Notes: generated by a model not told the origin, from the letters alone. DNA of 64,000 nucleotides from Pseudomonadota bacterium (GCA_016702545.1 JADJDT010000029.1:10500-74499), one strand, 5' to 3'; shown: positions 1 to 54,673, counted from the stretch's first letter. Program-made: numbers and translations.

Positions 1-3000
1 GCCGGCTGTGGCAGCGGCGACCTCGATCCGGTGCTGGATGCGCGGGTGGACGGCCGTCCCGTGCGGGTCGATGGGGGCAGCGTGGCCCGCGACCGCGGCG
101 CTGGACCGCAGGACGCCGCAGCCGGGGACCTCGCGGTGGCACCCGTCGCCGTGCTCTCGATCGCCGGCGCGCCCGCAGTGACGTTCCAGGCGGTCGTGGG
201 CGGCGCTGCCGACGAGCAGACGATCACCGTGGACAACGCCGGAGAGACTGTGGCCTCGGCGCTGGTCGGCACCGTCGGCGCGCCCTTCGCGTTCAAGGGT
301 GGCAGCTACCCGGGGACGGGGGGCACCTGCGGGGCCACGCTGGCCGCAGCCGAGAACTGCACCGTCGTGGTCAGCTTCCGCCCGGCGGCGGCGGGGGAGT
401 CGACGGGAGCGCTGAGCGTGGATTACCGCGACGGGCAGCGCGACCAGCGCGCGCAGCGGTCGCTGGTCGGTGGGGCGACGCGACCCGCGCAGCTCGCGAT
501 CAGCGGTGCTCCATCGTTTTCTTTCGGCAGCGGCGTGGTCGGGGCCACGATCGAGCACACCTTCAGCGTCGACAACACGGGGGGCACCGAGGCGACGGCC
601 CTGACCGCCAGCGCGCTCGGCGCGCCCTTCGCCTTCAAGGGTGGCAGCTACCCCGGTGGCGGCAGCTGCACGGCAGCGCTGGCCGCGGGGGCGAGCTGCA
701 CGTTGGTGGTGGTCTACGCGCCGAGCGACGCCGCCGCGAGCACTGCGACGCTGCGCCTCGGCTACCACGACGGCGCCGCCCCGCGGCAGGCCGAGGTCGG
801 GCTTGCCGGGTCGGGCGTCACCCCGGCGGCGCTCTCGATCTCGGACGGCGCTCGCTACGACTTCGGGCCGCGCGCGCTCGGCACGAGCGCTGACAAGACC
901 CTCACGATCAGCAATAGCGGTGCGGCGGGGGCCACGGCGCTGAACGCCGAGGCCCTCGGCAACGGCTTCGGCTTCAAGGGCGGCAGTTACCCCGGGACGG
1001 GGGGGACCTGCGGGCCGACGCTGGCGGGCTTGGCCTCCTGCACGGTGGTGCTGACCTTCGCGCCGACCGTGGTGGGGGAGGCCACGGCGACGCTCTCGTT
1101 GCTTTACGCCACGGGTGCAGGCAACCGCGGCGCCACGCGTCCGCTGGTGGGCCGCGGGCTCAGTCGCGCGGCGCTGGTCTACGACGCCGGGGTGGGCTTC
1201 GACTTCGGCACGCTCGCGGTCGGAACGCGGGTCGAGCGCGCCTTCATGGTGACCAACTTGGGCGAGCTGACGGCGACCGCCATCGCCCCTTCGGCCGGGC
1301 CGGCGGCGCCCTTCGCCTACGCGGGCGGCAGCTATCCGGGCAGCGGCGGCACCTGCGGCGCGAGCCTCGTGCCCTTCGGGAGCTGCACCCTCGTCGTGAG
1401 CTACCAGGCGCCGACCGGCGGCTCCCACGTCTCGGCGGCGACCCTGGGCTTCCACGACGGCGTCGAGGCCAAGGTCGCGGCGCTGCAGCTCCGAGCGGCC
1501 GCGACCGGAGCGGCCTTCCTCGTGTTGTCGGATGGCCCGAGCTACGACTTCGGTGCGGTCGGGGTCGGCGCGCAGGCGGCGTACGGCTTGACGCTGGCCA
1601 ACACGGGTGCGTTGGCCGCGACCGGGATCCTACCCGACGCGCTCCCCGCGCCCTTCACGTTGCCCGGGGGCTACCCAGGTACAGGGGGCGACTGCGGCAC
1701 GACCCTGGCCGCCGGGGCGACCTGTACGATCGTCGTCGCCTTCGCGCCGACCACAACCGGACCGAGCAATGCCTTGCTCACCTTGCACCATCACGATGGA
1801 ACGGCGACCCTCGCGACGACCCGCGCGCTGAGCGGCACGGGTACGGGCGACGCGGCCTTGGCCTTTGCCGATGCCCCGGTGCGGGATTTTGGGCGCCACG
1901 CCGTCGGCGCGACCCGCGAGCTGGCGTTGACCGTGCGCAACAGCGGCGCGCTGGCCACGGTCGGCGAGCTGCGCAGCACCGTTGCCCTGACGAGTGGCTT
2001 TAGCTTCAAGGGGGGGGCCTTCCCCGGGACGGGCGGAAGCTGCGGGCCACAGCTCGCGGCCGGAGCGAGCTGTACGGTCGTGGTCAGCTTCGTGCCGGCG
2101 GCGAACGGCCCCGCCAGCGCGCGCCTCGTCCTCGCCTATAGCACCTTGGCGGGTGCGGACAGCGCCGAGCTGGCGTTTTCGGGCCTCGGGGTCGCGCCGG
2201 CCACGCTGTTGATCTCCGATGGGCCGAGCTTCGACTTCGGCACGCGTACGGTCGACTCCAGCACGCGCAAGCAGCTCACGGTGACCAACGAGGGCGGTGT
2301 AACGGCGACGGCGTTGGCGCTCAGCGGGCTGGCCGCGCCCTTTGCCTACGTGGCGGGGAGCTGTGGGGCCACGCTCGATCCATCGGCGAGCTGCACCTTC
2401 GCCGTGGACTACCAGCCGAGCGCGGCGGGCGACCACGCCGACACGGTGCTGCTCGACTATAGCGATGGCGCGGCGACGCGGCAGACGACGCGGGCGCTGA
2501 CGGGCAGCGCGACCCTTCCCGCGCTGCTGACGATCTCCGATGGTCCGACGCTCAAGTTCGGCTCGCGCGCCACGGGGTCGGTCAGCGAGGCGACGCTGAC
2601 GGTGACCAACGGGGGCGCCTCGAATGCCACGGCGCTGAGCGCGGCGTCGCTCGGTGCGCCCTTCGCCTTCAAGGGTGGCGCCTATCCCGGCACGGGCGGC
2701 ACCTGCGCCGCGGCGCTCGCCCCCGGCGCCGGCTGCCTCGTGGTGGTGACCTTCGCGCCGAGCAGCGTCGACGCCTTCACCGGGACCCTGACGCTCGACT
2801 ACCACGACGGCGCGGCGGCGCGTTCGGCGCAGCGGGTGCTCTCGGGGGCCGCCCTGCCGCCGGCGCGCATCGAGTTCACCGCGGTGGCGGGCTACGACTT
2901 TGGTGCGCAGGCCATCGGCGCCACGCCCGTGCTGCGGCTCTTCCTGAACAACACCGGCGGTGTCGAAGCAACGAGCATCGCGCTCTCGGGGCTGCTGCCG

Positions 3001-6000
3001 CCCTTTGCCGTGACCAGCACGGACTGCGGCGCGACGCTGGCCGCAGCCCATATCTGCAGCCTCGATGTGACCTTCTCACCCACGGTCCTGGGGGCAGCGA
3101 GCGACAATCTGGTGGTTGACTACAACGACGGCGCGGCGACGAGGACCGCGAGCCAGGCTCTCCAGGGCACCGCGATGCCGCCGGCGCTGTTGACCATCTC
3201 GGATGGGCCCGGCTTCGACTTCGGCACTTTGGGGATCGGCGCGACGGCGCAGCACATCTTCACGATCAGCAACAGCGGAGGTGTGCCGGCCGTGCGCTTG
3301 ACAGCCCTGAGCTTGACGGCGCCCTTTGCCTTCAAGGGCGGGGCCTTCCCGGGGTTGGGTGGAAGCTGCGGCGAGAACCTGGCGGTGGGCACGAGCTGCA
3401 CGATGGTCGTGACCTTCGCGCCCTCCGCTGCCGGCGCGGCGACCGATACCCTGGCGCTGACGTACCACGATGGTGCGGACGCGACCGCGGCGGGTCGCGA
3501 CCTCCGCGGGCTGGCCACGGCACAGGCGGCCCTGGCGATCGCCGACTATCCGCAGGAGTACTACCAGGAGTATGGGCTGCAGCCGGACGGCCCCGTGCAC
3601 GACTTCGGGCGCAGTGGGGTGGGTCGCGCGGCAGCGCATGTCTTCGTGGTGACCAACAACGGGGCGTCGGCAGCGACGGCGCTGAGCGCGTCGGCGCTCG
3701 GCGTGGGCTTCGCCTTCACGGGCAACGGCAGCTTCCCGGGCCAGGGCGGCACCTGCGCTGCCACGCTCGCCGTCGGGGCGAGCTGCACGGTCGCGATCGA
3801 CTTCCATCCGCCGGCCGCTGCGACCTACACCGCCGAGCTCGCGCTCGCCTACCAAGACGGTGCCGGGGCGGTGACGGCCACACGCGCGTTGACGGGCATC
3901 GGCGTGACGACTGCGGTGCTAGCCCTGGCGGATTTCGAGGGCGGCATCCGGCTCGGTCCGACCTACGACTACGGCACGCAGGGCGTCGGTAGCCAGACGA
4001 GGCATGAGTTCCATCTGCGGAATCAGGGGGCGGTGGCGGCAACGGGGTTGGCGGCTCGCCTGAGTCCCTCGTTCGCCCTCAGCGGCGCGGCTTTCCCTGG
4101 GGTGGGTGGCACCTGCGGCACCACCCTGGCGCCGGGCGCGGAGTGCCTGGTCGCGATCGACTTCAGGCCGACGGACGTTGGTGCCGTCGCGGGAACCCTG
4201 ACTGTCGACTACCACGATGGCGCCGAGGCCCAGTCGGTCGCTCGCGCGCTGGGTGGCAGTGGCACGGCGCGACCGCTGGTGCGCGTGGCCGAGGAATTCG
4301 GCTATCCGCTACCGCTGGCCTTCGACTTCGGCAGGGTCGGCATCGGCCGACAGCTCGTGCGACGCTTCGTGCTCTTCAATGTGGGCGCGGAGACGGCCAC
4401 GCACCTGACCGTGTACGCCAACGGCGCGGCGTATACGGTGTATGCGAAGGATCCGGCGCCGCCCGCCGGTGGTGGCACGTCTGACGCTCCGCCGGCCTGC
4501 GGCACCGAGCTCAGGCCGCGAGAGACGTGCAGCGTCTGGGTCGGCTTCCAATCGACGACGGCGGGAACGCACCCCGGAACGGTCTTTGTCAGCTCCTTCC
4601 GCGGCAATTGGCTCGACCCGGTGACGACCGCGCGCGCGCTGACCGGTTCGGCCACGATCGGGGCCGAGCTGCTCCTCGTCGACTACCTCGACCGAGAGGA
4701 GTTGCAGCGCGATCCGCACGACTTCGGCACGGTCGGCGTCGGCGGCACGCGCGACCGGAGCTTCTTCCTCAAGAACTTCGGCGCGCACGAGGCCACGCTG
4801 CTGAGCGCCTTGGGCCCGGCGGGCGTCTTCAGCTATCCGGATGGCTACCCGGGTACGGCGGTCGCCGTGTCTGGCGCGAGCCCGTGCGGGACGAGCCTCG
4901 CCGCCGGAGCAAGCTGTGCACTCGTCGTGCGCTTCGCGCCCACCACCAACACCGTCAGTGCTGACGCGGTCGCCTTGCAGTACGACGACGGTGTTGCGAC
5001 GCGGGTCGTTCGCCGCGACCTGCTGGGCACCGGCACCCTCCGGGCGCTCGTGCGCGTGGCGGATTATCCCGACGGCTGGGCCGATTCTAGCCGCCCCTAT
5101 GACTTCGGTGTGCGCGGTCAAGCGCTCGATCACACCTTCTACCTCTTCAACGACGGCGCCCTCGCCGCGACCGTGTCCGACGCCGGCCTGCTGGCAGGAT
5201 CCTTCGGCTGGAAGGGCGGCGCCTACCCCGGCACGAGTGGGAGCTGCGGCGCGGCGTCGCTGGGGCCGGGCGCCACCTGCACGGTGGTCGTGACCTTCGC
5301 TCCGAGTGGTGACGGGCCACGGGCGGCGGGCCTCGGCCTCCGGTACCTCGACGCCACCGGTGAGCAGCTCGCGGAGCGCGCCCTGGCAGGTACCGCCACG
5401 ACAGCGCCGGTGCTGCAGCTTCAGAGCTGGGTCGGTCAGACGGAGCAGCAGGCACGCTTCGACTATGGGATCGCCGGAAGGCCCCGCGACCAGGTCTTCT
5501 ACCTGTCCAACCTGGGAGGGAGCGCGGCGACGGTCGCTGGCGGCGCGGTGACGGGGCTCGGCTTCGCCTTCAAGGGCGAGTCCTTCCCCGGTAGCGGAGG
5601 CACCTGCGTGGCCGGCGGCACCCTGGACGCCGGCGCGCGCTGCGAGCTCGTGGTGACCTTCGACCCGCGGGGGAGCCCCTACGGCGTGCGCTCGGGGCGG
5701 CTGGTCATCGCCTGGCATCCCGCTGGAGCGCCGAGCTCGGGTCACGAGACGAGCCTGGAGCTGGCGGGCAACGCCGCCGCTGGAGCGGTGATCGCGATCA
5801 GGGCCTTCCCGGGCGAGTTCGATGTTTCGCGGCCGATCGATCTCGGCGCGGTGCCGGCCTCGGCCGACGGCAGCTCGGCCCGCAGCCAGATACTCTACGT
5901 GGCCAACCTGGGCGCCACGGACATCACCGACCTCGCCCCCGTGCTCACCGCGCCGGCCGGGCCGCATCTTCGCTATCTGGGCGGCGCCTTCCCCGGAACG

Positions 6001-6180
6001 GGCGGGACCTGCAGCGCGGTGCTGCCCGCCAGCTCGACCGACCATTGCACGATCATCCTCGAGTTGGCGCCGCGGACGGTCGGGGTGGTCAGCGATGCGG
6101 TGTCGCTCACCACGGCCGGGGGAGCGCCCTTCCCAGTGCCGTTCACGCGCGGCCTGATGGGGCGCGGCCTCAATCCCTGA
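1..6180 (+). CDS. Very large secreted repeat protein (5' end lies outside the window) with about 17 tandem Ig-like modules of the choice-of-anchor-D / ASH-HYDIN kind
   Basis: The frame is open from base 1, with no stop before the listed start at 31. It has ~17 modules of ~105-120 aa. Each carries DFG..(A)VG....F.V.N.G...A and F-K-G-G-x-[YF]-P-G-x-G-G-[ST]-C-G..L..G..C.vvV.F.P. Stop codon TGA at 6178-6180. Third-position GC is high throughout. Confidence 0.85.
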   Translation, partial: AGCGSGDLDPVLDARVDGRPVRVDGGSVARDRGAGPQDAAAGDLAVAPVAVLSIAGAPAVTFQAVVGGAADEQTITVDNAGETVASALVGTVGAPFAFKGGSYPGTGGTCGATLAAAENCTVVVSFRPAAAGESTGALSVDYRDGQRDQRAQRSLVGGATRPAQLAISGAPSFSFGSGVVGATIEHTFSVDNTGGTEATALTASALGAPFAFKGGSYPGGGSCTAALAAGASCTLVVVYAPSDAAASTATLRLGYHDGAAPRQAEVGLAGSGVTPAALSISDGARYDFGPRALGTSADKTLTISNSGAAGATALNAEALGNGFGFKGGSYPGTGGTCGPTLAGLASCTVVLTFAPTVVGEATATLSLLYATGAGNRGATRPLVGRGLSRAALVYDAGVGFDFGTLAVGTRVERAFMVTNLGELTATAIAPSAGPAAPFAYAGGSYPGSGGTCGASLVPFGSCTLVVSYQAPTGGSHVSAATLGFHDGVEAKVAALQLRAAATGAAFLVLSDGPSYDFGAVGVGAQAAYGLTLANTGALAATGILPDALPAPFTLPGGYPGTGGDCGTTLAAGATCTIVVAFAPTTTGPSNALLTLHHHDGTATLATTRALSGTGTGDAALAFADAPVRDFGRHAVGATRELALTVRNSGALATVGELRSTVALTSGFSFKGGAFPGTGGSCGPQLAAGASCTVVVSFVPAANGPASARLVLAYSTLAGADSAELAFSGLGVAPATLLISDGPSFDFGTRTVDSSTRKQLTVTNEGGVTATALALSGLAAPFAYVAGSCGATLDPSASCTFAVDYQPSAAGDHADTVLLDYSDGAATRQTTRALTGSATLPALLTISDGPTLKFGSRATGSVSEATLTVTNGGASNATALSAASLGAPFAFKGGAYPGTGGTCAAALAPGAGCLVVVTFAPSSVDAFTGTLTLDYHDGAAARSAQRVLSGAALPPARIEFTAVAGYDFGAQAIGATPVLRLFLNNTGGVEATSIALSGLLPPFAVTSTDCGATLAAAHICSLDVTFSPTVLGAASDNLVVDYNDGAATRTASQALQGTAMPPALLTISDGPGFDFGTLGIGATAQHIFTISNSGGVPAVRLTALSLTAPFAFKGGAFPGLGGSCGENLAVGTSCTMVVTFAPSAAGAATDTLALTYHDGADATAAGRDLRGLATAQAALAIADYPQEYYQEYGLQPDGPVHDFGRSGVGRAAAHVFVVTNNGASAATALSASALGVGFAFTGNGSFPGQGGTCAATLAVGASCTVAIDFHPPAAATYTAELALAYQDGAGAVTATRALTGIGVTTAVLALADFEGGIRLGPTYDYGTQGVGSQTRHEFHLRNQGAVAATGLAARLSPSFALSGAAFPGVGGTCGTTLAPGAECLVAIDFRPTDVGAVAGTLTVDYHDGAEAQSVARALGGSGTARPLVRVAEEFGYPLPLAFDFGRVGIGRQLVRRFVLFNVGAETATHLTVYANGAAYTVYAKDPAPPAGGGTSDAPPACGTELRPRETCSVWVGFQSTTAGTHPGTVFVSSFRGNWLDPVTTARALTGSATIGAELLLVDYLDREELQRDPHDFGTVGVGGTRDRSFFLKNFGAHEATLLSALGPAGVFSYPDGYPGTAVAVSGASPCGTSLAAGASCALVVRFAPTTNTVSADAVALQYDDGVATRVVRRDLLGTGTLRALVRVADYPDGWADSSRPYDFGVRGQALDHTFYLFNDGALAATVSDAGLLAGSFGWKGGAYPGTSGSCGAASLGPGATCTVVVTFAPSGDGPRAAGLGLRYLDATGEQLAERALAGTATTAPVLQLQSWVGQTEQQARFDYGIAGRPRDQVFYLSNLGGSAATVAGGAVTGLGFAFKGESFPGSGGTCVAGGTLDAGARCELVVTFDPRGSPYGVRSGRLVIAWHPAGAPSSGHETSLELAGNAAAGAVIAIRAFPGEFDVSRPIDLGAVPASADGSSARSQILYVANLGATDITDLAPVLTAPAGPHLRYLGGAFPGTGGTCSAVLPASSTDHCTIILELAPRTVGVVSDAVSLTTAGGAPFPVPFTRGLMGRGLNP

Positions 6181-16898: not shown

Positions 16899-17081
16899 CT
16901 AGACCCAAAACAAGCGCGTCCCGCGCTCGTTTTGGGCCTAGATATGACTCAGGGGGCTTTCGCAAAGCCCCCTCGTCGCGGGGAGTGAATCCCCGCGACT
17001 TCACCCCATAACGCTCGCCATTCGGCTCGTCTAGCCCGAAAACAAACGGCTCGCGCCCAAGCGCGCTTGTTTTCGGCCTAG
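16899..17081 (-). mobile_element. MITE/REP-like four-hairpin element, copy A (inverted relative to copy B)
   Basis: The reverse complement aligns with 32708-32885, with about a dozen substitutions and one 3-nt indel. Both ends carry CTAG. Terminal hairpins are CCCAAAACAAGCGCG...CGCGCTCGTTTTGGG. Internal hairpins are GGGGGCTTT-CGC-AAAGCCCCC and GTCGCGGGGA-N5-TCCCCGCGAC. Confidence 0.8.
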
Positions 17082-17871
17082 AGCGCGCGGCGCTCGTCGG
17101 CGAGGACCCGCTGCGCCGATTCCAGGAAGAATCCCACGACATCGAGCGGCGGAGCGAGAGGCTCGCCCCCTCTTTCGCGGCGCGTGATCCGGCGAAAAGC
17201 GCGATGTGCGGCCGGCACGAACGGCCGCCAATCCACCGCCTCCAAATCGACTTCCTTTCCGGCCGCATCTTCCCCGCGCCAGGCGTCGCTTGCGGCCGGC
17301 TTCGACGGCCCGGGCCTCAGGCCGACGAGTGGCGGCCCCAACGACGCCGACTCCTTCGCCGGGTTGCCGGTCCCCGCCGCCGCGGCGTTCGCGATGGGTG
17401 TGGTCGCCGCGGGTGGCTGCTCGGAAACGATGCGCAGGCTGAAGCGTCGAAGCCAGGCGTTGGCAGCCTCGAGGTCGGCCGCCGCGCTACCCTGGAGGTC
17501 AGTATGCTCAGACGCCTCGGCCTTCTCATCGAGGGCGGGCGCCCAACCACCAGCAGGCGTCGCGGACGCTGCGTTCGAGTGCTCGCATCGGGGGCACTGA
17601 CCGGCGCCAGCCCTCGTTCGCCGGGCCCGTAGCGGCGGCTGGGCGCTTTCGCGGCCGCGAAGGTACGGGAGGCGCGATGCTTGAGATCGGAGGCGCCTTG
17701 CGTAAGCCGGTCGGACGGCCCGGTCGGTGAAGGAGCTACCGGGCAAGCCGCGCCACGGTGCCCGGGTCGCCGTGGTCGGGCGGTGGCCTCCGCGCTCAGC
17801 GCGCCGGCCCCTGAGCAGAGCATCACGAGCATCCAGATCGCTTCGCGTCGGGCACGGCAGGTCCTGGTCAT
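17078..17871 (-). pseudogene. Hypothetical secreted protein; the frame appears broken at G-run 17590-17594
   Basis: The signal-peptide-like start MTRTCRARREAIWMLVMLCSGAGALSAEA (ATG 17871) is in the frame of ORF 17317..18177. The high-GC3 C-terminal part (...EHTDLQGSAAADLEAANAWLRRF...VVGFFLESAQRVLADERRAL) is in the frame of ORF 17078..18058. One extra G at 17590-17594 joins them. The stop codon lies in the CTAG end of repeat copy A. Confidence 0.4.
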
Positions 17872-18248
17872 CGGCGAGGCTCCTTGCGGTGAGAGGCGAC
17901 GGCCGAGCGCTAAGCAAGGAACGTGCTTGGTCGCGTGCGATCGGGTGGTCACGCCGAGGAGGCTGCGAAGTGTCGATCGCAGCCTCATGATTACGATAGC
18001 TTCGACGCGCTTCACGCCAGAGCGTCGGCCGGGCGCCGCGAACGCGCGGCCGACGCACCCAGCCGGAAGCTCACCAGGACGTAGGATCGTCTCCAGACCA
18101 TCTCCCGGGACGTCGGTTTCGCCAGGTGGTGCACAGGGCTGGCCGAAGCGAGCCTTCGCCCAGCGTCCTGGAGGCACGTGACCCGAGCGCGATGGGCCGG
18201 GGGGCGATCCCGATGCAAGCAGACGCGCGGCGCCTTGCGCTCGGCTGC

Positions 18249-30530: not shown

Positions 30531-31342
30531 ATGAGAGGTACACGTCGAATCGGGTCATGTGTTTTGATCGCGGCTTTCGCTGCCTGCGGCGGCGGAGAGC
30601 AAGATCCGAACACCCAGACGAATGCGCTGGTGGAGAAGGTCCTCGCCGAGCACTCTAATCCGCAGGCATGCGAGAAAGGCTACGAGGTTTGTGTGAGCGT
30701 CGCCGGGAAGGAGGCATGTGCGAAGTTCATCGAGATCTGCATAACCCGGGCAGGGAGCGTCGGTAGCGTCGACGCGTGCGCCCCGCCGCCCGCCGTGCCC
30801 GCCGGCCCGCCCCCAGCCGAGCCACTGTCGTGTGACGAGATGGCCGAGGAGTGCACGAAGAAGGGCGCCGAGAACTGCGCCGGTATGTTGGAGGCGTGCC
30901 AGAAGATCGAGACCTGCATACTCAGCCTGACGGAATGCGCCGAACCAAGGGACGCGAGGGTTTGCCACGAGGCGCTCGTGACGGCTGGCTGCATCGCCAA
31001 GCCTCCCGCGCTCGAGGTCCAGACGGGCACCCCGCCCTTCGGCATGCTTCCCCGGGATCTCCCGCGGCTTCCGCCCGTTGGGTGCGACGGTCACGCGGCA
31101 CCTCCGGTGCCGCCGGCTGCCAACCTTCCGGTCGATCGGCCTGCGCTCCCGGCCCGGTGCGGCGCTCCCGCGGCGCCTCCGCTACCACCGGCTGTGAAGC
31201 TTCCGGTCGATCGACCGGCGCCCCCGTCAGGTGCGGCAATCGCGCGACGCCTCCGGTGCCGCCGGCTGCGAAGCTTCCGGGCGATCCGCCCGCGCCGCCC
31301 GCGAATCCGCCCGCGCCGCCTGCGGGTCCGATTGTGTACTGA
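30531..31342 (+). pseudogene. Cys-rich lipoprotein with three 25-aa Pro-rich C-terminal repeats; frame broken at C-run 31221-31225
   Basis: N-terminus MRGTRRIGSCVLIAAFAACGGG (lipobox AAFAAC). The 75-nt coding repeats start at 31083, 31158 and 31232, so the periods are 75 and then 74 nt. The third repeat (CGNRATPPVPPAAKLPGDPPAPP...PAGPIVY, stop at 31342) is in the frame of ORF 30851..31342. One extra C restores continuity. Confidence 0.65.
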
Positions 31343-31412: not shown

Positions 31413-32710
31413 ATGAAGACGCATGCGCAGCCCGCCCGCGGCCACGCTATCCGCAAGGTGCGCGTCAGGGTGCTGGAGGGCGCTGACGCTGGGGCGACGT
31501 GCGAGGCTCAGTCCCGCAAGGCGCTCGCAATCGGCAGCGCGCCCGACAACGATCTCGTCCTTCGGGATCCCAGCGTCAGCCGTTACCATCTCGAGCTCGG
31601 ACAAGCCCAAGACGGCATTCAGATCGTCGACCTGGGCAGCCGCAACGGCACCCACCTGCGCGAGCTGCGCATCGAGCGCGCGGTCGTTCCCCCTGGCACT
31701 CGCGTGCTTGTCGGTCGAACGCTGCTCGCCCTCGAAGATGGCGCCGCCGCCCGCAGCGATGAGGGCACGGGGCGGCGCCGGTGCCCGGGTTGATCGGCGT
31801 TAGCCCCGCGCTGGTCGAGATCGCGAGGTTGGTGCGCAAGCTCGCTCCGACGAGCGCTTCCGTGTTGATCCAGGGCGAGACGGGCACCGGCAAGGAGGTC
31901 GTCGCGCGTGCGGTCCACGAGCTTGGTGGCAACGCCGAGCGACCTTTCGTGGTGGTCGATTGTGGCTCGCTTCCGCCCACGCTGATCGCCTCGGAGCTGT
32001 TCGGTCACGAGCGCGGGGCCTTCACCGGTGCCGAAAGTCAACGCGCAGGTGCGTTCGAACGCGCCCACGGCGGGACGGTGTTTCTGGATGAGGTAGGCGA
32101 GCTGCCCCTCGATGTGCAGCCCGTGCTGCTGGGAGCGCTCGAGCGGCGGCGATTTCGCCGCCTGGGCGGTCGTCACGAAATCGAGGTTGACGTGCGTGTG
32201 CTCGCGGCGACGAACCGCGACCTGCGCGCCGAGGTCAACGCGGGCACCTTCCGCGCCGATCTGTACTACCGGCTCGCGGTGGCGAGGGTGGTCATCCCAC
32301 CGCTGCGCGAGCGGCCCGAGGATATCGAGCCCTTGGTCGCTCACTTCGTGCAGCAGCTCACCGGCGCCCTGGATGGCGTCGGGTTCGGGTCTGCGGCCCT
32401 CGCGGCGATGAGCGCGCATCGCTGGAGCGGGAACGTTCGCGAGCTGCGGAACGTCGTCGAGGCAGCGCTGGCCGTCGGTACCTTGAAGCTCGAGCACGAC
32501 GAGCTGGGGGCGCCCTTAGCCGCGGCCGAAGCGGCAACCGCGCTCGCGCCCTACCGGGAGGCACGTGCTGAAGCCCTCGCGCGCTTCGAACGCGGCTACC
32601 TTGGCGAGCTGATCAAGCAATGCGGAGGCAACGCGTCGCAGGCCGCGCGCCGAGCGGCGATGGATCGTCCTTATCTGCTGAACCTGCTGCGGCGCCACGG
32701 GCTGCGTTAG
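31413..32710 (+). pseudogene. FHA-domain sigma-54 enhancer-binding protein, frame broken at G-run 31769-31772
   Basis: The FHA part (ORF 31413..31793) reads LAIGSAPDNDLVLRDPSVSRYHLEL...IVDLGSRNGT. The AAA+ part (ORF 31781..32710) reads [44 protein letters not shown] and a C-terminal HTH. GGGG changed to GGGGG gives ...DEGTGAAPVPGLIGVSPAL. Confidence 0.85.
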
Positions 32711-32885
32711 CCCCAAAACAAGCGCGCTTCGGCGCGAGCCGTTTTGGGGCTAGACAGGCCGAAAGGCGAGCGTTATGGGGTGAAGTCGCGGGGATTCGCT
32801 CCCCGCGACGAGGGGGCTTTGCGAAAGCCCCCTGAGTCATATCTGGGCCCAAAACGAGCGCGGGACGCGCTTGTTTTGGGGCTAG
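32708..32885 (+). mobile_element. MITE/REP-like four-hairpin element, copy B
   Basis: It aligns with the reverse complement of 16899-17081. The left TAG (32708-32710) is the stop codon of the FHA activator. The right CTAG (32882-32885) contains the stop codon of the convergent PEGA gene. Terminal inverted repeat TAGCCCCAAAACAAGCGCG. Confidence 0.8.
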
Positions 32886-33565
32886 CGCAGCACCCGCTGA
32901 GGATTCGATCGGGTGTGAAAGCCGTTGATCAGCACCGTCTGATCCACGAGCGGGCGACCGCTCTCCGCGTCCAGGACGACCAGGCGATGCTCGCCGGCCG
33001 GGAGCTCCTGTTCGAAGGGGGCATAACCCGAGGGCCGACCATCGATCAGCACGCGGGCCCCTGCCAGCTTCAGCCCGCCGACACGCAGCCATCCCCGGTC
33101 CGAGGGCTCAGGGACGGCACTGGAACGCGCCACGCGGAGCTCGCGACGTGCGGCGCGGCGACCGCGCGCCGTGTCCTCGCCGCGCTGTCCGCGCTGCCGC
33201 TCGGCTTCTGCCGGTAGCCTGCCGGTCGGTGGTGGTTGCGCCGCGCGGGTGGCCGCTCCGGTGACGACTGGGTTGGTCGCGATCGACGGCCTGGCGACCG
33301 GGAGCTCGGGCGTGGCTGTCCGCGGCACGCCAGCAGCAGGAGGCTTGCTCGGCTGTCTCTCGCGTCCCGGCGTTGCCCCTTCGAAGGTGGGGACGTGTGA
33401 CGTTTCGCGGCTCTCTCCGCGCCAGATCCAGGCCGCGGCCGCGGTGGCCCCGCCGAGCACCAAGGCGGCCAGTAGCGCGGGCCAGTGGCGACGCGTGCGA
33501 GGCGCGGATCGCGCCGTCGCCTCGCCCAGGTCTCGCGCTGGGGTGACCGCCAGACTCGGGATCAC
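32882..33565 (-). CDS. Single-pass membrane protein with C-terminal PEGA domain (possibly the C-terminal part of the upstream kinase)
   Basis: TM WPALLAALVLGGATAAAAWIW, a Pro-rich linker, and PEGA-like GWLRVGGLKLAGARVLIDGRPSGYAPFEQELPAGEHRLVVL. GTGA overlap with the kinase stop. Confidence 0.7.
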   Translation of the reverse strand: MIPSLAVTPARDLGEATARSAPRTRRHWPALLAALVLGGATAAAAWIWRGESRETSHVPTFEGATPGRERQPSKPPAAGVPRTATPELPVARPSIATNPVVTGAATRAAQPPPTGRLPAEAERQRGQRGEDTARGRRAARRELRVARSSAVPEPSDRGWLRVGGLKLAGARVLIDGRPSGYAPFEQELPAGEHRLVVLDAESGRPLVDQTVLINGFHTRSNPQRVLR

Positions 33566-35907: not shown

Positions 35908-38900
35908 ATGCGTACTCTTAAGTTTGTCAGAGGTGTGTGCGCGCTGGGCGGGCTGCTCGTGGCGGCGATCGTCCCCGGTCTGGGCTGCAGCGGTGGTGGT
36001 GGGGACCAGGCGCCGCCGGTGGTGGGCGTGGCGGCGCGGGCGGCGACCAACGCCGCCAACAGCATGAACGCGATGAACGCGATGAACGCGATGAACGCGA
36101 TGAACGCGATGAACGCGATGAACGCGATGAACGCGATGAACGCGATGAACGCGATGAACGCGATGAACGCGATGAACGCGCTCAATGCGATGAACGCGCT
36201 CAACTCGATGAACGCGCTCAACTCGATGAACGCGCTCAACAGTGTGACGACCGGCACGCCGCTCGACGTCGGCGCGCTGCGCATCCCCTCGACCACGCTG
36301 ACCGACCTTGGCCGCTACACGCTGGCGCAGACCGAGCTGCTCTGCCCCGCGACCCGCCTCCCGCACAGCTTCGACCAGGGCACGCCGGGGGACCCGAGCG
36401 ACGACATCGCCGCGCACCTGACCTTCCCGCGCTGGCTGGTGCTCAAGCAGCAGTTCGAGCGCGTGCGCGTGGCCTGCGCCACGCCGGTGCCCGGCACCTG
36501 CGGCAACGGCGTCGTCGACGGCGGCGAGGACTGCGACACCGGCATCCCCCTGGGCAGTCCGGGCGCCTGCCAGACCGTCACCGTCGCCATCGACGAGGAC
36601 CTCGACGGCAACGGTACGCCCGAGACGAGCGTCACCTACGAGGTCTTCTCCGGCATCGGCCTGGCCTGCGCCGACCGCGCCTATCGCCCCTTCCTGCTGC
36701 ACCCCACCACCGGCCCCGAGGCCACCTCCAGCCCCGAGACCTTCAACACCTTCTTCCGCTACCTCTGCCTCCAAAGCTGGGATGAGGCCCAGGGCAAGGC
36801 CGTCTACCGCTGCGGCAAGGGCCGGCTCGCCGCCGGCGTCTCCGGCTACGCCGTGCGCGAGGGCACGCTCTCGGCGCGCCCGATCTACCTCTCCTCGCTG
36901 ACCTGGGGCGACGGCGCCGGCAACGTCTGGGACCGCCACTGGCAGTTTCGCGAGCACCACATCGGCTCGATCCCCGAGCCCATCGCCGCCGGCCAGCAGA
37001 TCGGCTACGCCCTCGACGCCGCCTGGGGCCTCAACCCGCGTGACACGCACCCGGGTGGCGCGAGCAAGGAGCCCGACTACCTGGCGGCCCTCGCGCTCAA
37101 GACCGCCACCAACCGCACGGGCGTCACCGTCAGCCCCTACAACCGGGCGAATGCCACCGGCGGCCTCGGCTTCGACGCCCGCGAGCTCAACCAGTGCGAG
37201 CCCGGCTACCACAGCGTCCCCGACCTCGCCTCCACCGGAGGCCTCGAGCAGGGGATGCAGCTCAACCTGAGCGTCGCCGGCTGGTACCAGGACGGCTGCA
37301 GCTGGGCCCGCGACTGGAACCTTCCCACCCTGCCCACGCAGCAGGTCGGCAGCTGCCAGGTCTTCGACATTGGGGCCGGCCCCCTGCAGACGCGGATGGG
37401 TCTCAACCTCGGCGATGCCACTCCGCGCCGGTGCCCCAGCTTCGCCACCTGCGAACCGGGCAAGAGCTGCTGCGTCGGGCAGTTTGCGCTGGGTTATCGG
37501 CATAGCTGCGCCATCAAGAACAACGGGACCCTGTGGTGCTGGGGCGACAACCAACAGGGTCAGCTCGGAGATGGCACCTTCGGTGGCGGACGCGGCGTGG
37601 CCGGGCCGGTCGTGGCATCGGAGACGGGTGGTCCGCTGACGAAGGTCTTGGACGTCTCGCCCGGGGGTCTCCACAGCTGCGCGCGACGCTCGGACGGAAG
37701 CGCCTGGTGCTGGGGCTACAACGGCTCAGGACAGGTGGGTGACGGGACGACGCTCGACCGCCCGAGCCCCGTTGCCATCACGGCGCTCGGGACGACGACG
37801 GCGGTCGAGCAGCTGCAGCTTGGCGCGTATCACAGCTGCGCGCGGCGGGCGGACGGGACGCTCTGGTGCTGGGGCGAGAACGAGGACGGTCAGCTCGGTG
37901 ATGGTACGACGCTCGCGCGCTCCAGCCCGGTTGCCGTCACGGCGCTCGGCACGATGGTGAGCGACTTCGCGCTCGGTTGGTACCACACCTGCGCGCGCCT
38001 CGCTGACGGCAGTCTGTCGTGCTGGGGGTGGAATGCGTATGGCCAGCTTGGCGAGGGGACTCAGAACAGCCGCTCGAGCCCCGCGGCCGTGACCGTCCTC
38101 GGCACGACGGTGGCTCGCATCTCCCTCAGCCGGTACCACACCTGCGCCCGGCGCGCGAATGGCACGGTGTGGTGTTGGGGCGACAATACCTACTATCAGC
38201 TTGGCGACGGCACGACGGTCAGGCGTTTGGAGCCGGCGCAGGTGACCGCGCTCGGCACGGCGAGCTCGGAGGTCGTGGCAGGGTCGGGGCACAATTGCGC
38301 CCTGCGCGCCGACAACAGCGTTTACTGTTGGGGAAGCAACGCCTACGGCCAGCTCGGCGATGGGACCTATTCAGCCGAGCGAGCCCCGTCGCCGTCACGG
38401 CGCTCGGCGCGACCGTCGCGGCGATCTCCGTCGGCGCCTGGCACACCTGCGCGCGGCGCAGTCATGGAACGCTGTGGTGCTGGGGGGATAACGGATGGGG
38501 CGCGCTCGGTGACGGATCGGTGGCTCGCACGGCCCCGACGCCAACGCGCGCCTGGAGCCTGCGCTGCGAATGCGGCGACGGGGTGTGCAGCGCCAGCGAG
38601 ACGGCGGAAAGCTGCCAAGCTGATTGCCGGCAGCAAAGCTGCGGCGATGGCAGCTGCGCTGCCACGGAGACTGAGGCGAATTGCCCGGACGACTGCCACC
38701 GCCAGCGCTACGCCGCGCTCGCGCTGGGGCCTACCACAGCTGCGCTCGACGTACCGACGGACGCGTGTGGTGTTGGGGAGAGAACGCCGAGGGTTCGCTC
38801 GGCGACGGCACGACCCTTCCGCGGCTGGGCCCCGTCGAGGTGACCGCGCTCGGCACAACCACAACTCAGATCGGGCTCGGCTTCTCCTTTGGCTGTGCGC

Positions 38901-41900
38901 GGCACGCAGACGGCAGCTTGTGGTGTTGGGGCTACAACGGCTACGGCCAACTGGGAGACGGTAGCTACTCGACTCGCCCGAGCCCGGTGGCCGTGACCGC
39001 GCTCGGCCTGCCGGTGGTCGACTTCGACCTGGGCCGCCGCCACAGCTGTGCGCGCCGAAGCGACGGTAGCGTGTGGTGCTGGGGATCCAACTCCGATGGT
39101 CAGCTCGGCGACAACACGTTGGTGCAGCGCCCGAGTCCCGCCGCCGTCACCGTGCTGGGCACGACGGCTCTCGACGTGGCGCTCGGCTGGTATCACAGCT
39201 GCGCCAGGCGCAGCGATGGGAGTGCGTGGTGCTGGGGATCCAACTCCTATGGCCAGCTCGGCGACAACACGTTGGTGCAGCGCCCGAGCCCGGTCGCCGT
39301 CACGGCGCTCGGCACCACGGTCGCGCGTCTGGCGCTGGGCGGCTACCACAGCTGCGCAAAACGCACCGATGGCAGCCTGTGGTGTTGGGGGGCCAATGGT
39401 AACGGCCAGCTCGGCGACGGCACGACCGTCGCGCGCACCGGTCCTGTCGCGGTGACCGCCCTCGGCACCGCGGTCGAGGATGTGTTGCTCGGGTACTGGC
39501 ACACTTGCGTGCGGCGCACCGACGGCAGTCTGTGGTGTTGGGGGGGAAAGGCCTTCCCCAGTTCCAGCGGCCCGCTCGCGGCGGGGCAACTGGGTGACGG
39601 CACGACGTTGGCGCGCTCGAGTCCCGTGGCGATCACTGCGGTGGGAACCGCGGTGGCTGAGGTGGCCCTGGGCTACTGGCACACCTGCGTGCGCAACACC
39701 GAGGGGGCCCTGTCGTGCTGGGGTTACAACACCAACGGCCAACTCGGCGCCGCGACCGGCCTCTCGGCGTGGGCACCCGTGGCACTTGCCGTTTGCGGTG
39801 ACGGGGTTTGCGCGTTCGATGAGCAGCGAAACGGCGCCTGTCCGCGCGATTGCGCCACGAAGTGCGGCGACTGCGTCTGCGACGGGGTGCTGGAGGATGC
39901 GACGACGTGCTCGGCGGACTGCATGCCAGGCGGCGCGTGCACGCCCTCGGCCTGCGGCAATGCGCGCTGTGAGGCCGATGAGACCTGCGCATTGTGCCCG
40001 GGTGACTGCGGCACCTGCTACACCACCTGCGGCAAGCACGGCTGTGAGCCGGGGGAGACGTGTACCAGCTGCCCGGGTGACTGCGGGGCCTGCGCGGCGC
40101 CGGTCTGCGGCAACGCGAGCTGCGATGCGGGCGAGAGCTGCGGCTCGTGTCCGGGTGATTGCGGGGCGTGCGGTGGCACGGCCTGGGGGCAGCCGGCGGG
40201 GGCGATCAGCGCGAGTCTGCAAGCCGTGAGCTTCCCCGTGAACACCAGCGTGGGCTTTGCGGCGGGCACCAACGGGACGCTGCTCAAGAGCACGGACAGC
40301 GGCGCGAGCTGGACGGCGCTGAGCGCGACACGGCGCGACGCTAGGGACGCTGGCCTTCCTCGACACCCAGACGGGCCTGGTCGCGGGCGATGGCGGCGTG
40401 CTGCTCAAGACGACCGATGGCGGCCTGAGCTGGACGGCGCTGACCTCGGGCACCACGGCCGCGCTGCGGGCGCTGGCGCTGCTCGATGCGCTGACGGCCT
40501 TCGCCGCGGGCGACGGCGGCGTGCTGCTCAAGACCACCAACGGTGGCACGAGCTGGACGGCGCTGACCTCCGGCACGGCGGCGGCGCTGCGGGCGCTGCG
40601 CTTCGTCGATGCGCAGACGGGCTTCGCCGCCGGCGACGGCGGCACCATCCTCAAGACCAGCAACGGCGGCACGAGCTGGGCGGCGCTCAGCTCGGGCACG
40701 GCGGCCACGCTGCGGGCGCTGGCCTTCGTCGATGCGCAGACGGGCTACGCCGCCGGCGACAACGGCACGATCCTCAAGACGACCAACGGCGGCACGAGCT
40801 GGAGCACGCAGACCACCGGCGTGCATGGGGCCCTGCACTCGCTGGCCTTCCCGCTCGGTGGCCTGCACGGCACGGCGGTGGGCGAGGGCGGCCTGGTGCT
40901 GCGTACGACCAACGGCGGCACCTCGTGGACGCAGGAGAGCTCGGGCACCTCGGAGACGCTGCTCGGGGTGACGCTGCCGGCGGACTGGACGATGGGCGTG
41001 GCGGTCGGCGCCAGCGGCACCGTGGTGCGGCGCATCCCGCCCTGGGAGCCCTCGATCCTCTACGACACCGAGGTCGCCAGCCTGGCGCCGCCGACGATCA
41101 TCCCCAGCGCGGTGATGAGCCAGCGCGTGGCCTTCACCGGCAACAACAGCGGCTGGCTCTATGCCCTCAGCCCCACGGCGCGCGTGCCGCGCTACAGCCC
41201 GGCGCGCCTCGCCGACGCCGTGCAAGGCCGCAGCCCCGTCGGCCCGCTGCCGGGCGAGAGCTTCCAGACCCTCTACGCCGCCACGGCCTCGGGCCTGGGT
41301 TACGCGCTCAACGCCTCCACCGGCGCCCTGCGCTGGACGACCGACGGCAACAGCGGCCTGGCGGGCAACCAGCCCCTCGGCACCGCGCTGGTCGCGGCCC
41401 CCGTGGTCTCCCCCACGCGCAACCTGGCCTTCTTCGCCACGCGCAACCTCACGGGTGCGCAGAACCGCCTCTTCGCCTTCGACGCCAAGACCGGCGCCTG
41501 TCGCTGGGTGCTCAATGGCTCCTGCGCCGGCGCGACCGACACGCTCAACCTGGGCCAGATCAGCGGCAGCCCGATTCACGACGCCACGGCGCGAAAGCTC
41601 TTCCTCACCAGCACCAGCCTCAGCGGCGGCGCCACCGTCTGGGCGGTGGACGCGGGCGACGCCACGCCCGGCACCGTGAGCTGGAGCCGCAACCTCGGCG
41701 ACAGCGATGCCTCGCCGACCTTGGCCGAGACCACGCGGACGAGCCTCTACGTCGGCACCAACAGCGGCCGCCTGCACCGCGTCCGCACGGCCGACGGCGT
41801 CAGCTGCTGGAGCACGACGGGCAGCGGCTGCACCAGCTTTGGCGGCAGCGAACAGGCCTTCTGCACCGCCACCGACGCGCTGGGTACCGCCTGCGCCGCC

Positions 41901-42266
41901 GGCAGCGCCATCGCCTCCGGCGTCGTCGTGCTCTGGAGCGGGACGCACACCGGCCGCCTGCTCTTCGCCACGGCAGACGGCCACCTGCGCCTGCTCAACG
42001 CCGACGGCACCCTGGTCTGGAAGACCACCACCCCGATCCCCGGTGCCAGCCTGCCCCTCGCCATCCCCGAGCGCGACAGCCTCTTCGTCGGCGCCACCGA
42101 CGGCAAGCTGCGCGAACTCAGCCTCACCACCGGCGCCGTCCTCAGCACCCAGACCGTCGGCCCCGGCACGGCGGCCGTCGGCAGCCCGACCTACGACACG
42201 CGAGCGGCGATGCTCTATGTCGGGACCTCGACCGGCGTCCTCTACCGCTACAACCTGTCGCCCTAG
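35908..42266 (+). pseudogene. ~2100-aa multi-propeller lipoprotein (MNA repeat, unknown ~430-aa domain, 2 x RCC1-like propellers, Cys-rich CGxGxC modules, BNR/Ycf48-like propeller, PQQ-like propeller) with three frame breaks
   Basis: Start ATG 35908 (GAGG 7 nt upstream) gives MRTLKFVRGVCALGGLLVAAIVPGLGCSG. RCC1 blades read YHSCA.R.DG..WCWG.N..GQLGDGT. Continuity across ORFs 35860..38964, 38019..38843, 38681..43825 and 40398..42266 is restored by one extra base at C-run 38384-38387, one extra base at G-run 38726-38729, and a +1 change at ~40325-40340. T.DGG.SW blades run from 40270 to 40960. The protein ends ...VLYRYNLSP, with stop at 42264-42266. Confidence 0.8.
36064..36243 (+). repeat. In-frame 9-bp tandem repeat (13 perfect ATGAACGCG units plus 7 degenerate units) encoding (Met-Asn-Ala)n
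   Basis: Counted directly. The perfect units span 36064-36180. They are followed by alternating CTCAAYKCG/ATGAACGCG units to 36243. The array lies ~40 codons after the lipobox Cys. Confidence 0.95.
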
Positions 42267-42268
42267 AG

Positions 42269-42417
42269 CATCGATCGGGTTGCCGGACCGAGCGAGGCGA
42301 AGGCATTGGAGGCACAGGCGCGAAGCGAGGAGGGCGCCTGCTGGTGGCAGGCAACCGACGAGCGACAATGCCTGTGCCTCCAAGGGCAAGCCTCGCGACG
42401 GGAGTCAACCCGATCGA
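42269..42417. repeat. ~150-nt imperfect palindrome (four-helix long hairpin) just 3' of the giant lipoprotein gene
   Basis: Hand-paired helices are 42270-42281/42405-42416 (12 bp), 42291-42297/42389-42395 (7 bp), 42305-42318/42369-42382 (14 bp) and 42335-42340/42346-42351 (6 bp, loop TGGTG). The internal loops are near-symmetric. Confidence 0.7.
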
Positions 42418-42640
42418 GGCTCGAAAACCTGCTGCGCGGCCCGGGGCGTGGCGTCGCCTCAATAACCATAGAACGCGAATGCACGCCAGCATACTGGCGC
42501 AATGGCCATGCTTCACACCACTAGCAGTGGAGCGCGGCAGATCACGAGCCGTAACGTTGACGCAGGCCTCGACACAGGGCTTGCTCAGTTGGCGATCCAC
42601 TGCGACGAACAGTCCCCCCTGCCACGAGACGGGCAGTTCG

Positions 42641-43968: not shown

Positions 43969-44396
43969 GCACGGGAGTGCCGCAGGCCGGTAGCCCGGGC
44001 CTGCCGGACCGGGGTCCGGACGAGGCGGCCTTCCGGGTGTGCCAAGGGCGGGAGAACAGTACGTGCCGGATCGGGCCCGGCGCTTGCGGAGGGCAGAGGC
44101 CGCATCAGTCTGCCCCGTCCCTTGATCGCCGCCGGTGAGACGATCGTGATCACGCAGCGCTGCACGCAGCGACAGTTCCTGCTGCGCGATGTCGAACCAC
44201 CTGCGCATCCTGGCTACCGACCTTCGCGGCGAGGCTGCCGAGTTCTGCCGCTGGCTCTTCGAGCTCACGGCCAGGTACAGCGCTTCGGTGCCTCAACGCC
44301 CATTGGGGCCGGTGGGAGGACCTCTGGGCCAGCGAGCAACCGTCGGTGGGGCGCCTCGCCGCCGCTCTGCGCGGGGCGATGGCGCGGGGCGATGGC

Positions 44397-44448
44397 GCGG
44401 GGATTCACTCCCCGGGACGCGCTTGTCCTGGGTCTACTTCGGGTCTAG
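44397..44448 (+). mobile_element. Truncated third copy of the MITE/REP-like element
   Basis: GCGGGGATTCACTCCCC (an internal hairpin arm) is joined directly to GGGACGCGCTTGT..GGGTCTAG (the right terminus). The terminal CTAG (44445-44448) contains the atpC stop codon. Confidence 0.6.
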
Positions 44449-54508: not shown

Positions 54509-54673
54509 TTAGGGCTCGTGACGAAACAAATCGGTCGACTGTGGCTGTCGAGGCGCGCGGCCGGCAAGGAGCGACGACGAAGGTCTACCTGGGGTAAACC
54601 TAGGAGGAGCGACGCTGGCGGACGCGATGGATCGGCGGCCACAACGATCGAGCTGTTTTATCACGAGCCCTTA
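54509..54673. repeat. 19-bp inverted repeats flanking 127 bp in the intergenic region
   Basis: TTAGGGCTCGTGACGAAAC (54509-54527) against the reverse complement of GTTTTATCACGAGCCCTTA (54655-54673), 17/19 matches. It lies between the NtrC-type gene stop (54697) and the outer-membrane-protein gene start (54484). Confidence 0.6.

Follow-up and report, generated by a model that had tools for sequence, protein, structure and literature searches.

The repeat at positions 16899-17081 of the window (the whole stretch of DNA that was analysed, 64,000 nt in length) belongs to a dispersed family of elements that are very likely mobile and non-coding. The family is new, and the kind to which it belongs, the bacterial MITE, is already known. 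On balance, we favour a MITE that inserts at the TA within the tetranucleotide CTAG and is mobilised in trans, with an IS630/Tc1-mariner-type enzyme as the preferred candidate. The characteristics of a MITE that were found here are a length of 183 or 196 nt, the lack of coding capacity, terminal inverted repeats (TIRs), dispersed copies with unrelated flanks, and polymorphism between strains. The original prediction had placed the repeat between a MITE and a REP-like element, and this ambiguity has now been narrowed.

Copies in the window, family size and host

There are two full-length copies and one degenerate copy of the element in the window. The features of these copies are as follows.

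16899-17081, plus strand: copy A, full-length 183-nt element including the flanking CTAGs (profile positions 1-183, nhmmer E = 1e-63)
16900-16901 and 17079-17080: putative TA duplications of copy A
16899-16941, plus strand: left palindromic module L of copy A, consisting of CTAG, 16-nt arm, loop TCC, 16-nt arm and CTAG (from the fold, module census and compensatory pairs)
16942-17030, plus strand: central module C of copy A, with two perfect hairpins at 16951-16973 and 16975-16999 (from the fold and alignment)
17031-17081, plus strand: right palindromic module R of copy A, with an A-tract, GC stem and T-tract, terminator-like on both strands
32708-32885, minus strand: copy B, full-length 178-nt element with a 4-nt deletion in R (repeat search, blastn and nhmmer)
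32708-32710, plus strand: TAG stop codon of the sigma-54 activator gene 31781-32710 (Pfam Sigma54_activat, E = 1e-65), made up of the flanking TA and the terminal base of copy B
32882-32884, minus strand: TAG with which the PEGA-domain gene 32882-33565 stops, contributed by the opposite end of copy B
~44365-44448, minus strand: copy C, degenerate rearranged derivative of the 196-nt variant, with a damaged left terminus, hairpin 3 and a duplicated 13-nt unit

Copies A and B are reverse complements of each other, as was originally predicted. Their arms match over 145 nt at 95% and over 37 nt at 92%, and blastn aligns them with 93.1% identity over 175 nt. The earlier count of about a dozen substitutions between them holds, but the indel is of 4 nt and not 3 nt. 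The third copy, which had been placed at 44397-44448, is genuine, though it is weaker and longer than was claimed. It is matched by two collinear blast pieces (E = 9e-6 and 0.002), and its local alignment to the 196-nt variant has a score of 82.5, where none of 300 random segments of the window exceeds 63.5; at E < 1e-3, nhmmer with the full-length profile misses it. In this copy, the degenerate left terminus is joined to hairpin 3, and this is followed by the duplicated 13-nt unit of the long variant.

The prediction of a multi-copy family is borne out by more than 40 further copies with unique flanks. A 22-nt core, which spans the junction of the two central hairpins, has 42 exact matches, i.e., two in the window and 40 in Ga0268298. 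The 37 contigs with a match to this core (the loci with L numbers below) are all from this single JGI metagenome. In the 218 kb made up of the window and these loci, the profile census gives ~46 copies, 22 of which are full length. Their flanks are all unique, and are related neither to one another nor to the window. Most of the full-length copies are 182-184 nt long (183 nt is typical, and copy B has 178 nt), and four are 195-196 nt long. There is no exact match to the 22-nt core among 185,579 species-representative genomes or in viral contigs, and no blastn match to the element in the plasmid collection. A search of Rfam gives no match over the whole window at gathering thresholds, and at E <= 1 it gives nothing on the element apart from chance hits far below threshold.

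The element recurs across many independent runs and assemblies. Wastewater and activated-sludge DNA runs have a word depth over the element that is ~30-400 times the depth of the flanks. Taken together with two to three copies per 64 kb, this suggests a number of the order of 100 copies per genome. Short-read assemblies are broken by these repeats, as is seen from the many loci that end inside the repeat. The contigs that four DNA runs yield over copies A and B are short and of low depth, and they end at the repeat.

The host is an uncultured wastewater bacterium with a G+C content of 71%, and its genes include FHA/sigma-54 activators, Ser/Thr kinases, PEGA, RCC1-like and BNR repeats. For AtpD, the best identity among the matches listed is 74%, and these matches are from mixed phyla (Geobacteraceae, Bdellovibrionota and alphaproteobacteria; a Sorangium MAG has 70%). 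The element is absent from all 80 AtpD-bearing loci among the matches listed. Exact-protein look-ups with the sigma-54 activator, the PEGA protein, AtpC and AtpD give no other contigs. In addition, the PEGA-domain protein encoded next to copy B (32882-33565) has no homologue but itself among 5.8 billion clustered proteins, which suggests a very poorly sampled lineage or a fast-evolving gene. Run X18 contains 99% of the sampled words of locus L033, but only an element-sized share of the region of the window. Thus, the organisms of the window and of Ga0268298 probably belong to different strains or species and have the family in common.

Modular anatomy, fold and hairpin covariation

According to the alignment of 21 full copies, CTAG divides the element into three modules.

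Module L, 43 nt: CTAG, N, CCCAAAACAAGCGCG, loop TCC, CGCGCTCGTTTTGGG, N', CTAG
Module C, 89 or 102 nt: two perfect hairpins, then a tail
Module R, 51 nt: CTAG, CCCGAAAACAAACGGCTTGCGC, loop, GCGCGCTTGTTTTCGGG, CTAG

The TIR of 17-19 nt (GNCCCAAAACAAGCGCG) is made up of the two outer arms, one from L and one from R, and in copy A the outer TIR inside module L is ACCCAAAACAAGCGCG. An inverted repeat at the termini had been recognised before, and it is recovered here over 26 nt at 96% in copy B and at 18 of 20 positions in copy A, as read from the sequence. The long variant arises from a slippage-prone 13-nt unit in the tail of C, which is triplicated in L016 and duplicated in copy C. The number of modules also varies. 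Some copies have no L (L004, L006, L018, L037 and others), some have C modules in tandem (L002, L013 and L019), and at L020:1595-1644 a solo R hairpin stands between CTAGs.

For copy A, fold prediction recovers on both strands the four hairpins that were originally described, including one at each terminus, and the two central hairpins are perfect. The minimum free energies of the two strands are -94.9 kcal/mol (z = -8.75) and -113.5 kcal/mol (z = -8.87), and none of 200 dinucleotide-preserving shuffles folds as well. Averaged over pairs of copies, the identity amounts to 0.87 in L and 0.84 in R. In those parts of C that the search pattern does not cover it is 0.90-0.94, a figure that is inflated because the copies were found via the exact 22-nt core pattern. 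Within the family, conservation is highest in the central double hairpin.

The terminal hairpins show compensatory change. Ten pairs are altered on both sides, a number that is reached by none of 500 shuffles, and structures in which the 3' partner is slid by 1-3 columns have far worse covariation than the actual pairing. At the position beside TAG, GC, AU, CG and UA pairs all occur. The bounding tetranucleotides covary as well, with CTGG...CCAG in R of L031, L020 and L033a, and CCAG...CTGG in L of L004. The copies in L031 and L020 are at different loci and have subfamily markers in common together with the CCAG right end, a hint that an element can bring its terminal tetranucleotide with it.

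Transcriptomes, which had been proposed as a place to look for expression, do contain the element: sludge metatranscriptomes hold contigs that carry it with various flanks, one of them at a depth of 273. From these contigs, which give neither strand nor RNA ends and could include DNA carry-over, the copies appear to be transcribed with their neighbours. Module R fits a simple terminator pattern on both strands; the region has 2 such sites against 0.9 +/- 0.9 expected, which is not above chance. The copies may be co-transcribed with neighbouring genes, and the end modules, with their A-tract, GC stem and T-tract, would probably act as 3' hairpins or weak bidirectional terminators, a putative role that is plausible.

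Target site, gene ends and co-resident MITE families

Every copy of the family is intergenic. The gene contexts of the classifiable copies are tandem in 12 cases, convergent in 8 and divergent in 5. At least 19 termini, belonging to 18 copies, have a terminal TAG that serves the adjacent predicted gene as its in-frame stop codon. In the window, the last CTA of module R of copy A is the stop codon (TAG, minus strand) of ORF 17078-18058, copy B exactly fills the gap between two convergent genes, and the atpC TAG stop codon lies in the terminal CTAG (44445-44448) of copy C. Locus L004 is like copy B, in that the element is between genes whose TAG stops come from the element ends. This stop-codon pattern is explained by the target, since CTAG is rare and is often a stop codon. 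CTAG is five-fold depleted in the window (33 observed versus 166 expected) and TA is two-fold under-represented (661 versus 1300), and a large share of the window CTAGs outside the elements are stop codons.

The left tetranucleotide is CTAG in 18 of the 21 full copies and the right one in 15 of the 21. The right end of copy B reads CTAA, differing at the outermost base. Such departures fit a 2-bp TA duplication around an element with the ends G...C. A TTAG flank in L036 was created by the insertion of another element, fam7, into the TA beside the studied element, and the allele without fam7 reads GGGCCTAGTCG.

Insertion at the TA of the rare CTAG, which would leave TA on both sides, is well supported. 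Judged from its sequence, the element would start with G and end with C, and CTAG would be rebuilt at both junctions. Because of this rebuilding, a TAG stop codon would be kept for the gene on either side, and two new target sites would be formed, giving side-by-side nests with other MITE families. In a genome with 71% G+C, a rare target together with ends that rebuild it would channel insertions to gene ends and spare the genes, while the multiplication of target sites would favour MITE nests.

At least four other MITE families are present in the same DNA. They have ordinary long TIRs and no end hairpins. Most of them are bounded by CTAG and have the ends G...C, and fam7 is bounded by TA/CA and has the ends A...T. 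They often directly adjoin the studied element, with one CTAG in common.

Window 42263-42425: fam2, ~160 nt, TIR GAGCAYCGATCGGGTTG, starts exactly at the TAG stop of the beta-propeller gene 40323-42266
Window 54510-54673: fam3, ~160 nt, TIR GGGCTCGTGACRAAAC, TA-flanked, between an NtrC-like sigma-54 response regulator gene and the next gene
L005, L009, L011, L017, L021 and L022 (e.g. L017:3835-3982): fam5 (GGAGCCTGTCGGGAAAT...) and fam5b (GCTGTGCTCGGCCGAAG...), CTAG-bounded
L036:4509-4650: fam7, 142 nt, TIR CCCCACCGCTCAGCTG, in the TA beside the studied element, with the junctions CTAA...TCAG, where one TA copy is CA

The window copy of fam2 is 82-84% identical to the copies in L005 and L017. 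A strain related to that of L017 lacks precisely the fam2 copy, and its joint there shows a 4-nt overlap of CTAG. The window copy of fam3 is 94-96% identical to the copies in L026 and L034. In L034, fam3 is nested inside the studied element at CCCCG-TA-ACGC and has TA on both sides, as compared with the uninterrupted consensus. Fam5 and fam5b adjoin the studied element with one CTAG in common, giving nests of two to three elements, and fam7 at L036 is absent in a related strain (run X4). Clean TA/CTAG duplications are found only in the neighbouring families fam2, fam3 and fam7. A further insertion, of 181 bp, is found inside fam5 at L011:1602-1782 by comparison with L021 and L005. It has the TIR GTAGTCGTTCACGG and an 8-bp direct duplication, CTTCGGCA. 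This MITE, although in the same genome, belongs to another transposase type.

The studied family is itself polymorphic between strains that are 3-5% diverged in the flanks. Insertion polymorphism had been named as a check on the original prediction, and the element is present in some strains and absent in others at L033 and L017. At L017, the strain in run X4 is without the element and keeps a single CTAG, but it has an extra 13-nt near-duplicate of the flank. At L033, the element is missing in four independent runs (X4, X11, X15 and X48), and the empty allele, which is not clean, looks as if the sequence between 7-nt direct repeats (GCAGCGG) had been deleted. The copies in L004 gave no usable empty site, the relatives being too divergent. 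The polymorphism shows the mobility or instability of the family. In addition, the single CTAG at the empty allele of L017 supports TA duplication within CTAG, short of proof.

At a CTAG target, a TA duplication is indistinguishable from a 4-bp duplication, and also from the case in which the element has a CTAG at its own end and inserts 3' of CTAG. A 4-bp CTAG duplication of the IS5-like type was considered and rejected. TA plus element ends is the better fit to the CTAA of copy B and to the CTAA...TCAG junction of fam7, and only the TA is duplicated where fam3 is nested at G-TA-A.

These repeats also bear on annotation. Spurious ORFs, among them one for a peptide of 40 aa that recurs, arise from the studied family and from at least four co-resident ones. 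Since the repeats lie on stop codons, gene ends and intergenic regions in this lineage would be mis-called unless the repeats are masked.

Transposition machinery and alternative explanations

No transposase had been seen in the window, and this holds both for the window and for the 37 loci. Neither a transposase nor a longer element with matching ends is found in the 218 kb, which are a small part of the genome, and inverted repeats 600-3000 bp apart reveal no IS-like structure. A C-terminal Y-x(1-4)-NP motif is the signature of RAYT/IS200-type transposases. The search of the six-frame ORFs of the 218 kb for tyrosine-transposase motifs (Y-x(1-4)-NP and NP[VL][RK][AH]G) gave nothing convincing, and the lone Y-x(1-4)-NP match, a 743-aa ORF in L008, is not RAYT/IS200-like in look. 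We infer that a transposase whose gene lies elsewhere in the genome mobilises the element in trans, and that this is most likely a TA-duplicating DDE enzyme of the IS630/Tc1-mariner type.

Known systems offer parallels for this mechanism. Elements of the IS630/Tc1-mariner group insert at TA in general (PMC2170065), and IS630 is described as preferring the TA within 5'-CTAG-3' and duplicating TA (PMC2170065; Tenzen and Ohtsubo 1991 cited therein). This preference of IS630 itself matches that of the studied element. The bacterial MITEs RUP and Correia are small and have TIRs, TA ends and stable stem-loops (PMC2229807; also PMC2817692). RUP and other IS630-associated MITEs are, like the studied element, ~100-200 bp long, non-coding and bounded by TIRs with TA at both ends; they are also intergenic, occur in the order of 100 copies, and are thought to be mobilised in trans (PMC2229807). 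They differ in that no cognate IS with matching ends is found in the 218 kb here, and in that the termini of the studied element are each palindromes of 43-51 nt, within modules delimited by CTAG.

Two other systems are similar in part. BOX elements of Streptococcus pneumoniae are modular, and the number of their sub-units varies. The variable modular build is found here too, in the copies without L and those with tandem centres, but the sequences are unrelated, and BOX has neither TA/CTAG-delimited modules nor palindromic end modules. Correia elements are known to have terminator and RNase III effects. The Correia/NEMIS elements of Neisseria are TA-flanked MITEs with two length variants, as here, though theirs measure 100-155 bp; they lie beside genes and are co-transcribed with them, and their transcripts are strongly folded (PMC2229807). 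Their sequence is unrelated to that of the studied element, which has no IHF-site variant, rebuilds CTAG at ends that are often TAG stops, and is found in an environmental bacterium with 71% G+C.

The enzyme could alternatively be one that acts on single strands. In a REP/REPIN/BIME-like element, the L and R hairpins would be the active units, recognised as ssDNA by a HUH tyrosine transposase (RAYT or IS200/IS605-like) that cuts at CTAG. The element would then be an inverted REP doublet with a long spacer, and CTAG would be a cleavage or target tetranucleotide and not a duplication. We consider this rather unlikely, though several of our observations speak for it. Both terminal hairpins are kept paired by compensatory changes, with four different base pairs beside TAG and with CTGG...CCAG pairs at the hairpin bases, and a CCAG right end is common to the L031/L020 subfamily. 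Mosaic copies (without L, with tandem centres, or reduced to the solo R hairpin), the extragenic position, the high copy number and the clustering with other repeats point the same way. REP, REPIN and BIME elements with RAYT likewise are extragenic, have high copy numbers and form inverted hairpin pairs and mosaic clusters, and REPs are reported to keep their palindromes by complementary mutations and to cluster in BIMEs (PMC2817692). However, a REP is defined as an imperfect palindrome of 20-35 nt preceded by an unpaired GT(A/G)G head (PMC2817692), whereas the hairpins here are longer (43-51 nt), have no such head, and hold the palindromic CTAG inside the stem. The predominant repeated unit is the whole 183-nt composite and not the hairpin, orientation is unbiased, and the 218 kb, though a small part of the genome, contain no convincing Y-x(1-4)-NP transposase ORF and no RAYT. 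Moreover, the co-resident families behave as classical TA-duplicating MITEs, which have long TIRs without end hairpins and use the same TA/CTAG target with clean duplications. The TA-within-CTAG MITE, for its part, leaves some of the data unaccounted for. A transposase that binds double-stranded TIRs gives no reason for hairpin covariation, neither empty allele of the studied family (L017 and L033) is clean, and the CCAG right end is shared by a subfamily. The covariation could be explained by a hairpin-recognising HUH enzyme (RAYT-like), by selection on DNA or RNA structure after insertion, or by hairpin-templated repair. Because it reaches the flanking tetranucleotides, and because the right end is subfamily-specific, we retain a small probability that the end modules are the substrates of a hairpin-recognising enzyme (REPIN/RAYT-like, with a CTAG 'head', in a lineage for which none is described), or that the element is a host-adopted mobile cassette that delivers a stop codon and a bidirectional terminator to both neighbours. 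In the light of the host genome, the hairpin covariation could help to tell whether the transposition machinery binds double strands or hairpins.

Selection by the host could also have kept the structures, as bidirectional terminators, mRNA-stabilising 3' hairpins or protein-binding sites, with mobility being incidental or extinct. The very stable fold on both strands is in keeping with such a role, as are the end modules with their A-tract, GC stem and T-tract in both directions, the many copies at gene 3' ends (8 between convergent genes), the well-conserved central double hairpin, and the presence of the element in metatranscriptome contigs. Nevertheless, we find this explanation highly doubtful. 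Five copies lie between divergent gene starts and twelve in tandem contexts, presence or absence at the level of strains indicates recent gain or loss, and the terminator scan is not above chance. In addition, the conservation of the core is inflated by the search pattern, and the contigs show neither RNA 3' ends nor strand. There is next to no probability that the segment is protein-coding, with the peptide ERYGVKSRGF...LVLGL as a real domain, or that it arose by chance or as an assembly artefact. The same spurious peptide was rightly reported in ORFs over copies A and B, and it also occurs in L004 and L033. This shared peptide is not a gene, because the copies differ by indels of 1, 4 and 13 nt that break the frame between them. 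The copies also begin at the stop codons of their neighbours and lie outside the GC3-rich ORFs. A conserved coding gene, the alternative that the original prediction had named against itself, is thus contradicted by the indels and by the intergenic position of all copies, and an artefact is contradicted by the occurrence of the element in many independent runs and assemblies.

With respect to local GC skew, the copies are oriented 21 versus 19, i.e., without bias, and opposite orientations occur inside single contigs (L004 and L033). Elements derived from IS200/IS605 (PATE-like) lack TIRs, insert strand-specifically 3' of a fixed tetranucleotide and are biased in orientation; such an origin was rejected on the basis of these orientations and of the clear TIRs. 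The window appears to be part of a single replichore, as its cumulative GC skew rises from one end to the other.

Some further features of the window were observed. The FHA-domain ORF 31413-31793 and the sigma-54 activator ORF 31781-32710 are in different frames and overlap by 13 nt; the pair could be a split FHA/sigma-54 regulator, or could result from a frameshift or an error of sequencing. Three tandem 75-nt units (78-80% identical) precede the FHA-domain ORF closely on its upstream side, at 31074-31302. A giant ORF at 1-6180 has internal repeats of 340-690 nt and runs off the start of the window. Coding repeats are also found at 37500-39800 (153 nt, RCC1-like) and at 40250-40830 (123 nt, BNR/Ycf48-like). 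Finally, ~20 tandem copies of the 9-nt unit GCGATGAAC, decaying 3'-ward, lie within a long ORF at 36043-36260.
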